A DNA stretch of 64,000 nt from Escherichia coli O127:H6 str. E2348/69 (GTDB taxonomy: Bacteria > Pseudomonadota > Gammaproteobacteria > Enterobacterales > Enterobacteriaceae), in NCBI RefSeq assembly GCF_000026545.1, contig NC_011601.1; one strand, written 5' to 3'. A model generated the notes under the pieces. That model worked only from the letters and a program-made list of their open reading frames with translations. It was not told the DNA's origin and did no database searches. Each line of letters starts with the position of its first letter. Position 1 is the first letter of the stretch. Of this stretch, positions 42,355 to 42,644 are shown in pieces. A program made the position numbers and the translations under genes.

Positions 42355-42446
42355 CCCAACCCGGGGGGGGTATCATCCGGCGTAAAAAACGATCGCTTTG
42401 GACACCGCGCCCCCTCTCACGCAGAGAAAAAATTCCCGTTTCAGGG

Positions 42447-42572
42447 CAGTTAACATGTTAACTGGCTGCCCGGGCATTTTTGCGGTTTTTATCTTTATTA
42501 TTCAGTTTGTTGTGCGGAAAAAATGTTAACAGGCTTTTTCAGCAAATGTTAACCGGGCAGCAGTTAACATTT
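42447..42572. repeat. candidate packaging (cos/pac) recognition region: repeated (A)ATGTTAAC elements incl. 18-bp perfect palindrome cagttaacatgttaactg
   Basis: Palindrome 42447-42464; aaatgttaac at 42521-42530 and 42544-42553; inverted copy gttaacattt 42563-42572; lies between HNH and terS. Confidence 0.5.
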
Positions 42573-42644
42573 GCGGCATGAGACGCCGGGAAAAATGGGC
42601 TGAACCATACCCGGCTGAGTGCGTTCTGGACCCGGGAGGAGGCT

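Follow-up and report, generated by a model that had tools for sequence, protein, structure and literature searches.

Positions 42355–42644 of the window (the whole stretch of DNA that was analysed, 64,000 nucleotides) are the cos region of a long-tailed, Stx-type (Pankowvirus-like) lambdoid prophage, the packaging module of which is HK97-style and predicted to be HNH-dependent. We have very little doubt that this interval is cos. The repeated ATGTTAAC motifs within it probably constitute a cosB-like array for recognition by the small terminase, TerS, although the binding of TerS is deduced here from sequence comparisons. The cohesive overhang of this phage family is already known from Lys8385Vzw (PMC7946995); no description of the repeat array or of its two specificity types was found in the literature searched.

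The packaging module

An earlier note on this DNA had placed the repeats between an HNH endonuclease gene and the small terminase gene, and Pfam analysis confirmed both flanks (PF01844 and PF03592, respectively). The genes of the region are as follows.

41747–42007, minus strand: DUF3950/YlcI-like gene (Pfam)
41989–42354, plus strand: HNH endonuclease gene, encoding the terminase-associated nuclease of the packaging module (PF01844, E 2.7e-7)
42645–43208, plus strand: terS, Terminase_2-type small terminase (PF03592)
43205–44866, plus strand: terL, HK97-type large terminase with ATPase and nuclease domains (PF03354 and PF20441)
44930–46867, plus strand: prohead protease–capsid fusion (Pfam)
46983–49664, plus strand: portal (Pfam)

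The HNH gene, which is annotated as an HNH endonuclease in RefSeq relatives, ends 290 bp upstream of terS, and this gene order is the same in all relatives examined. The sole PDB sequence match of TerL was 6z6d (“Terminase large subunit”; E 1.1e-9, residues 84–534), which we take for the crystal structure of HK97 TerL described in PMC9410871. At the nucleotide level the module is 93–99.7% identical to those of BP-4795, 2851, 1717, YYZ-2008 and phi330 (genus Pankowvirus). Many Stx1a/Stx2 prophage records likewise match it, and all five repeats are present in the Pankowvirus-like Stx phages. The window sequence is a distinct member of this family and, across a 321-bp query, is 100% identical to E. 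coli E2348/69.

The intergenic region is present in 1,271 of 5,426 complete E. coli genomes, with a maximum of seven copies per genome and about 2,990 places in total. Both HNH and terS accompany it at 38 of 40 sampled rows, and the two rows without both genes each still adjoin one of them. Among viral loci, the palindromic 18-mer described below was found in a cos context in 120 of 120 cases and in no other context, and no satellite that carries the array without terS was found among these 120. Eleven of the viral loci seemed at first to be exceptions, but ten of these are truncated at an end and one features a T-to-K substitution in TerS.

The cut site and the virion ends

Induction of the Stx1 phage Lys8385Vzw (MT225100), followed by PhageTerm analysis of particle DNA, has shown that it possesses 3′ cohesive ends with the cos sequence CGCCCCCCCT (PMC7946995, Zhang et al.). 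Its database record ends with ...GGACACCGCCCCCCCT and starts with CTCACGCAGAG (CTCACGCAGAGAAAAAATTCCCGTTTCAGGGCAGTTAACATGTTAACTGG...), and this end/start junction maps to 42415|42416 in the window, thus indicating that the cut site is a GC-rich 10-mer at 42406–42415 rather than the repeats. The earlier note had overlooked this 10-mer. The intergenic regions of Lys8385Vzw and the window are approximately 96% identical; over the initial 245 bp of the record, the identity is 98.8%. By homology to this relative, we predict a 10-nt 3′ overhang at 42406–42415 and a left virion end at 42416 for the window prophage. The elements around the cut are listed here.

42363–42370: conserved G8 run flanking the cos core, 36–53 bp upstream of the cut
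42406–42415: predicted cosN, the cohesive-end sequence CGCGCCCCCT, a GC-rich 10-mer that differs from CGCCCCCCCT by one base
42416–42438: conserved core CTCACGCAGAGAAAAAATTCCCG, immediately inside the left end, containing an A6 tract (42427–42432, +12 to +17)

The earlier note had left the choice between cos and pac open, and had named physical ends elsewhere, or headful packaging, as evidence that would refute it. The ends of the close relative are fixed and cohesive and map, by homology, inside the interval, and TerL is of the HK97 type. The interval does therefore hold a cos, whereas pac can be discarded, since the PhageTerm ends of Lys8385Vzw show that packaging is cos-type.

The core at 42416–42438 is nearly invariant across 15 lineages and is recognisable even in Burkholderia phage vB_PR2a. 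A run of six to eight G residues is kept in 15 lineages of Enterobacterales relatives; a cosQ-like or nuclease-positioning role for the G8 run is speculative. In PPompW prophages, an ISEc20-associated deletion ends at this G8 run. Two other records were considered as independent sources of termini and rejected: that of phi330 is arranged to start at terL, while that of Burkholderia vB_PR2a is split inside the conserved core, which makes its ends uninformative.

The repeat array

The ATGTTAAC array sits 31–155 bp inside the left end and starts with a palindrome, 31 bp in. Its parts are listed here, together with the equivalent sequences in two variant arrays, v2 and v3, which are described below.

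42447–42464: perfect 18-bp palindrome CAGTTAACATGTTAACTG, consisting of two overlapping ATGTTAAC half-sites; unchanged in 58 distinct close relatives
42474–42521: A/T-rich spacer with T5 tracts at 42477–42481 and 42486–42490
42522–42530, plus strand: site B, AATGTTAAC; invariant in close relatives, AATGTTTAT in v2 and v3
42545–42553, plus strand: site C, AATGTTAAC, left arm of a 12-bp inverted repeat; invariant in close relatives, AATGTTTAC in v2 and v3
42563–42571, minus strand: site D, AATGTTAAC, right arm of the 12-bp inverted repeat; invariant in close relatives, GTAAACATT in v2 and v3

The palindrome is exactly as the earlier note had described it, and the three outlying copies, which it had given as identical, indeed all read AATGTTAAC. 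Copies of ATGTTAAC are located at 42449–42456 (minus strand), 42455–42462 (plus), 42523–42530 (plus), 42546–42553 (plus) and 42563–42570 (minus), with spacings of 6, 68, 23 and 17 bp between successive sites and with mixed orientations. The last two are arranged as a perfect 12-bp inverted repeat, GCAAATGTTAAC N9 GTTAACATTTGC, at 42542–42574. Seven copies occur in the 64-kb window, five within 122 bp and two elsewhere, against an expectation of 1.84; none of 100 shuffled sequences reached seven, and the Poisson expectation for five copies in 122 bp is approximately 3e-3. The GC content over 42474–42552 is 30%, and columns 42483–42512 of the spacer show no variation in close relatives. We propose that the palindrome is a candidate for the primary, ancestral TerS operator, and that the spacer is a bendable segment separating the site clusters.

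Conservation was assessed using HNH–terS spacers taken from loci that had been found with TerS. This provided 58 distinct window-type sequences, once one IS1-disrupted locus and two divergent loci had been left out. None of the 38 site columns varies in these relatives, whereas 42 of the 191 non-site columns (22%) rightward of the cut do (Fisher p 2e-4, which is only indicative as the sequences are related). The loci L110 and L111 differ at approximately 15% of flanking positions with all five 8-mers intact.

Three features of the region were sought and rejected. No intrinsic terminator is predicted near the palindrome, and there is no match to the IHF consensus WATCARNNNNTTR in 42355–42644. 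A hydrophobic 24-aa reading frame that starts with the ATG at 42455, within a 43-aa ORF at 42398–42529, was also dismissed as a gene, as the equivalent frame in v2 stops after five codons.

Two natural array types that change together with TerS

The v2 array of E. coli 2014C-3097 is rare, with matches in 11 of 5,426 genomes, two of them at only about 86% identity; v3, from E. coli 2012C-4221, is one of these two, and its spacers diverge from those of v2 by about 14%. All five copies are changed in both v2 and v3, from GTTAAC to RTAAAY, and the v2 palindrome reads GTTATAAACATGTTTATAAC. The spacing is kept within 1 bp (6/67/24/17 in v2 versus 6/68/23/17 in the window) although the spacers diverge, and the T-tracts are retained in v2 and v3 while neighbouring bases change. 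This concerted change at five sites within one host species indicates that the reader of the sites is phage-encoded rather than a host factor.

Sliding identity between the window and v2 is 92–100% across DUF3950, HNH and the cut site, falls to 30–85% at approximately 42430–42971 (the repeats and TerS residues 1 to ~110), and returns to 90–100% from approximately 42972, across the TerS C-terminus and TerL. The C-terminal part of v2 TerS, from about 42972, is 90–97% identical to that of the window and goes with TerL. Five further loci feature a window-type HTH and window-type sites joined to a v2-like downstream segment, which shows that the HTH and the sites stay together while the rest of terS recombines. 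From these comparisons, the repeats and the N-terminal half of TerS appear to form a specificity cassette, as in lambda versus phage 21, although the co-variation, seen with only two motif types in three lineages, could also arise from physical linkage alone, the two sequences being adjacent.

The TerS domain concerned is encoded by the first part of the gene, which divides as follows.

42645–42809, plus strand: terS codons 1–55, N-terminal helix-turn-helix DNA-binding domain; GTG start after AGGAGG; PF03592 covers residues 2–57
42810–43208, plus strand: remainder of terS, comprising a Pro-rich linker that varies, a helical C-terminal part and a tail

An AlphaFold2 model of TerS, built on 17 family members, predicts an N-terminal domain (pLDDT > 92) with helices at residues 4–14, 19–25, 30–41 and 44–55. 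Its best fold match in Foldseek was the SF6 G1P DNA-binding domain 4zc3 (TM 0.84, rmsd 1.6 Å); the top matches also included 2cmp and 3zqq, and the best ones extended to SF6-like TerS in full length and to the small terminases of PaP3 and NV1. The TerS substitutions common to v2 and v3 are K19R, A25E, A30E, T32S and V35C, and the model places residues 19, 25, 30, 32 and 35 in helix 2 of the HTH and in the first half of its recognition helix, helix 3. T32 with V35 or I35 accompanies GTTAAC-type sites in three lineages, while S32 with S35 or C35 accompanies GTAAAC-type half-sites, both in a small sample. On the basis of sequence and model, we propose that TerS codons 1–55 encode the reader of the repeats.

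The concerted change in itself specifies a phage reader but not which protein this is, and the comparison covered only the genes that adjoin the array. The repeats could thus be operators of another phage DNA-binding protein, such as a head-gene regulator or a packaging accessory factor, and we consider this improbable, if the best placed of the alternatives. Between the two array types, however, the DUF3950 gene region shows 98–100% identity and HNH 97%, its four substitutions being scattered, while the divergent block ends inside terS. The motif also tracks TerS across genera with different upstream genes. A search for a promoter inside the array returned one 9/12 match, on the minus strand, which the motif itself creates and which is no more than chance would produce. 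Recognition by TerS accounts for the repeats better than a second DNA-binding protein does, and the earlier note's suggestion that they are terminase recognition sites has good comparative support from conservation, from concerted change with the TerS HTH and from the distant GTWAAC motifs described next.

Origin of the array

A scan of one genome per species provided 13 relatives with TerS identities of 37–48%, from Phytobacter, Kluyvera, Kosakonia, Serratia, Citrobacter, Pantoea, Rouxiella, Erwinia, Proteus and Buttiauxella; to these can be added Salmonella phage FSL SP-016. Their common cos core consists of a G6–8 run, ...ACC followed by the GC-rich 10-mer and CTCACGCRCAGAAAAAATYCCC, a Shine–Dalgarno sequence, and RTWAAC-ATG-TTAAC. 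In place of an array, the 13 Enterobacterales relatives have a single RTWAAC-ATG-TTAAC palindrome with the terS start codon at its centre, some 39 bp from the cut, and the window palindrome is homologous to it. Codons 2 and 3 (TTA ACA) are invariant in 11 of the 13 while later synonymous positions vary, which indicates constraint at the DNA level. Burkholderia phage vB_PR2a features TGTTAA-N5-TTAACA around the terS ATG, and the corresponding position in a second subfamily (Pantoea and related viral contigs; TerS ...EKTAKVKGSQL) holds GTWAACC as three or four direct repeats.

The E. coli lineage has approximately 190 extra bp, from the palindrome to a new start, AGGAGG-N5-GTGCTGACA, and the three added sites lie inside this segment. 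The present terS start GTGCTGACA resembles a decayed copy. The simplest history suggested by these comparisons would be that the 5′ region of terS was duplicated in tandem and that its functions were then divided between the copies.

Other readings of the repeats

In a different assignment, TerS would act as it does in HK97 and read the A-tract core (+10 to +23), and the ATGTTAAC copies would be remnants of terS 5′-end duplication, or auxiliary sites that merely adjust efficiency or autoregulate terS. Among non-coding elements, this core is the best conserved across all relatives, and HK97 TerS binds at +15 to +29, A-tract included (PMC11331095). By analogy, primary recognition could really take place at the conserved A6 tract at +12 to +17. 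The ancestral terS start, ATG TTA ACA, has its homologue in the first ATGTTAAC copy, and the start now used looks like a decayed copy. HK97 TerS, however, has no HTH and uses a different mechanism, whereas the window TerS has an SF6-type HTH. The A-tract core is also identical in the window and v2, and therefore does not explain the concerted change of sites and HTH. Decaying remnants would neither be invariant in 58 variants nor switch type together. We consider it unlikely that the core takes the place of the array. Recognition of the A-tract core may well contribute alongside the array.

About equally unlikely is a role in RNA, where the inverted repeats would form hairpins in the late transcript that stabilise the mRNA, serve as an RNase III site or control the translation of terS. 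Judging by gene order, the region lies inside a Q-dependent late operon. Predicted folding energies are -15.4 kcal/mol for the C/D repeat (z -5.3) and -8.4 kcal/mol for the palindrome (z -2.9), and the v2 homologue of C/D keeps a hairpin of -11.3 kcal/mol despite changes on both arms. Site B, however, is unpaired, yet it changes with the other copies, and 42416–42520 folds no better than shuffled sequences (z -0.45). In L110 and L111, stem positions outside the 9-mer are broken with no compensation while the 9-mers are intact. The single 14-bp AT-rich palindrome of the distant relatives permits no meaningful hairpin, and the GTWAACC repeats of the second subfamily are direct, not inverted.

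It is very improbable that the repeats reflect chance or base composition, or that they are a MITE inserted beside terS, as the clustering far exceeds expectation, no dispersed copies were found and the sequence was found only in the cos context, although the extra segment of about 190 bp is missing from distant relatives and is bounded by an extended inverted repeat (42455–42473 versus 42553–42570).

Comparison with known packaging systems

In lambda and phage 21, cosB consists of R3-I1-R2-R1 sites that are bound by gpNu1, and cosB together with the Nu1 N-terminus forms a specificity cassette. The array described here resembles cosB in that a short motif is repeated in both orientations on the terS side of the nick, at the first-packaged end. 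Motif type and TerS N-terminal domain change together, as in lambda/21, while the TerS C-terminus goes with TerL. There are several differences. The predicted overhang here is 3′ and 10 nt long, whereas that of lambda is 5′ and 12 nt; an HNH partner nuclease and an HK97-type TerL are present; the TerS DNA-binding domain is SF6/Terminase_2-like rather than the winged helix of Nu1; and a T-tract spacer takes the place of an IHF consensus between the sites.

SPP1 and SF6 carry short repeated boxes (pacL/pacR) in intrinsically bent DNA beside terS. The window TerS shares with them the fold of its N-terminal domain and its Pfam family (PF03592; 4zc3, TM 0.84). Unlike the headful pac systems of SPP1/SF6 with their permuted ends, this system features fixed cohesive ends, as seen in the relative, along with an HK97-type TerL and HNH.

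HK97 (gp1 TerS, gp2 TerL, gp74 HNH) has the same HNH–terS–terL order, a homologous TerL and a 10-nt 3′ overhang, which is assigned here by homology. Recognition is just downstream of the cut in HK97, as would be the case here, where an A-tract is present at about +12 to +17. HK97 is the only HNH-cos system with a mapped TerS site, and its TerS, which has no HTH, threads DNA through its ring and uses a single 15-bp site at +15 to +29 (PMC11331095 for the site). In place of this type of recognition, with ring threading, an arginine clamp and a single site, the window TerS is a PF03592 protein with an external, four-helix HTH domain and is accompanied by a repeated GTWAAC motif from +32. Lys8385Vzw and the Pankowvirus-like Stx phages have the same module with 93–99% nucleotide identity and five repeats, and the overhang of Lys8385Vzw is published (PMC7946995); unlike Lys8385Vzw, the window has CGCGCCCCCT as its predicted overhang, not CGCCCCCCCT.

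A proposed mechanism

A packaging mechanism is proposed where the array lies on the first-packaged side of the cut as a palindrome, a T-tract spacer, a single site and an inverted pair, and where the outward-facing N-terminal SF6-like HTH domains of oligomeric TerS would bind these sites. The T-tract-rich, 30%-GC spacer would bend the DNA between the palindrome and the distal sites. TerS binding would mark the phage concatemer and position TerL and HNH at the 10-mer 31 bp away, where they would make staggered nicks at 42406–42415 to generate 3′ cohesive ends. The DNA would then be packaged rightward, into terS. HNH proteins of this class are non-specific alone, and specificity is attributed to TerS; dependence of cos cleavage on HNH, or its stimulation by HNH, has been shown for HK97 gp74 and lactococcal sk1. 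In evolutionary terms, the ancestral state would have been one palindromic site overlapping the terS start codon, and the E. coli lineage would have gained about 190 bp and three sites as the terS start moved downstream.

The repeats, their conservation, their joint change with TerS, the fold of the TerS domain and the position of the ends in a close relative are what the data show; we infer TerS as the binder, the bending of the spacer, the stoichiometry and the order of events. The mixed orientations and the spacings of 6, 68, 23 and 17 bp fit no simple model in which a ring wraps direct repeats.

Biological meaning

For annotation, the virion left end is at 42416, by homology, and the repeats are part of cos rather than a gene or a regulatory region. 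A broader reading, which we put forward tentatively, is that GTTAAC and RTAAAY arrays with matching TerS HTH variants represent two natural packaging-specificity groups in one prophage family, that the arrays decide cross-packaging among co-resident prophages, which are often defective or Stx-carrying, and that the multi-site array arose by a duplication that uncoupled the operator from the terS start codon. If true, this would provide an amino-acid-to-base code for an SF6-type TerS in a cos system, with T32/V35 reading GTTAAC and S32/C35 reading GTAAAC.

There is still debate on how small terminases choose viral DNA, and TerS sites have been mapped in few cos systems. A cut site, an array and two natural variants would together make this an easy system for studying HTH-type TerS recognition in a presumably HNH-dependent cos phage. 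The family is very common in E. coli, occurring in about a quarter of complete genomes and in several copies in EHEC, and it includes Stx1 and Stx2 phages. Knowledge of the array types could help to predict cross-packaging among co-resident EHEC prophages.

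Features of the window
41747-42007 (-), DUF3950 (YlcI/YnfO-like) gene, longest ORF frame
41989-42354 (+), HNH gene
42363-42370, G-run
42406-42415, cut site (cohesive-end 10-mer)
42645-43208 (+), terS
44930-46867, protease-capsid fusion ORF, 645 aa
46983-49664, portal ORF, 893 aa
48666-49198, repeat array within the portal ORF

Architecture of the cos region in relatives

The PPompW prophages carried by O157 strains have ISEc20 (IS110-family) exactly at the G-run (locus L119 1146-2604, LC567822.1); the stretch from the Q/tRNA region to the G-run, lysis genes and HNH included, is absent. 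These prophages keep terS as well as the cut site and repeats. The cos region of the E. coli TB354 prophage (locus L085 1748-2571, NZ_AP038814.1) is truncated by an IS1A insertion beside ompW. Only the final ~70 bp before terS remain, so neither the cut site nor any of the five repeats is present in it. In one subfamily (L245-L247), GTTAAC and GGTTAATTAC each occur twice upstream of the G-run. Both motifs lie ~130-170 bp before terS, to the right-end side of the cut, and may be extra recognition elements at the end that is packaged last.

Genes flanking the cos region

In its longest frame, the DUF3950 gene runs over the 5' end of the HNH gene. The real start of the DUF3950 gene is likely to be an ATG within this frame, near 41947; the two genes would then be divergent and separated by ~40 bp.

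The TerS of Lys8385Vzw, a close relative phage (MT225100; L002 185-793), is annotated from a CTG, whereas the conserved GTG/ATG start lies 45 nt further downstream. The N-terminus MLT(T/A)QKRK is common to all relatives and the GTG is preceded by AGGAGG; both features point to the shorter ORF as the correct one. Across the family, TerS varies most in the linker after the helix-turn-helix domain; it is in this linker that the Proteus mirabilis ATCC 29906 protein (L097 1501-2091) has a low-complexity insertion of ~35 residues with (K/E)VN-type repeats.

The head genes of the window are unusual in their order, with a prohead serine protease domain (Peptidase_S78) fused to an HK97-fold major capsid domain in one ORF upstream of the portal gene. 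The portal ORF is itself unusually long, and in its C-terminal extension past the Phage_portal domain a 162-bp (54-aa) unit is repeated 3.3 times in tandem at 95% identity.

Cohesive ends and conservation of the cos core

The cohesive-end sequence is polymorphic within the prophage family, and co-resident prophages may therefore carry ends that are non-complementary.

Cohesive ends in the window and its relatives
CGCGCCCCCT: window and its variants in E. coli 2014C-3097 and 2012C-4221 (v2/v3)
CGCCCCCCCT: Lys8385Vzw and Salmonella phage FSL SP-016
CGCCCCCCGT: loci L064 and L076

The core itself extends beyond Enterobacterales. When the ends of the Burkholderia phage vB_PR2a record (PQ789823.1; L117 1-60 and L118 640-712) are joined, the enterobacterial cos core is restored, CCCTCACGCGCAGAAAATTT|CCCCTTTT...; the record is broken within this core, at a point that is probably not the true end. 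As judged from this junction, the cos-core packaging signal is conserved between phages of Beta- and Gammaproteobacteria at only ~35% TerS identity.
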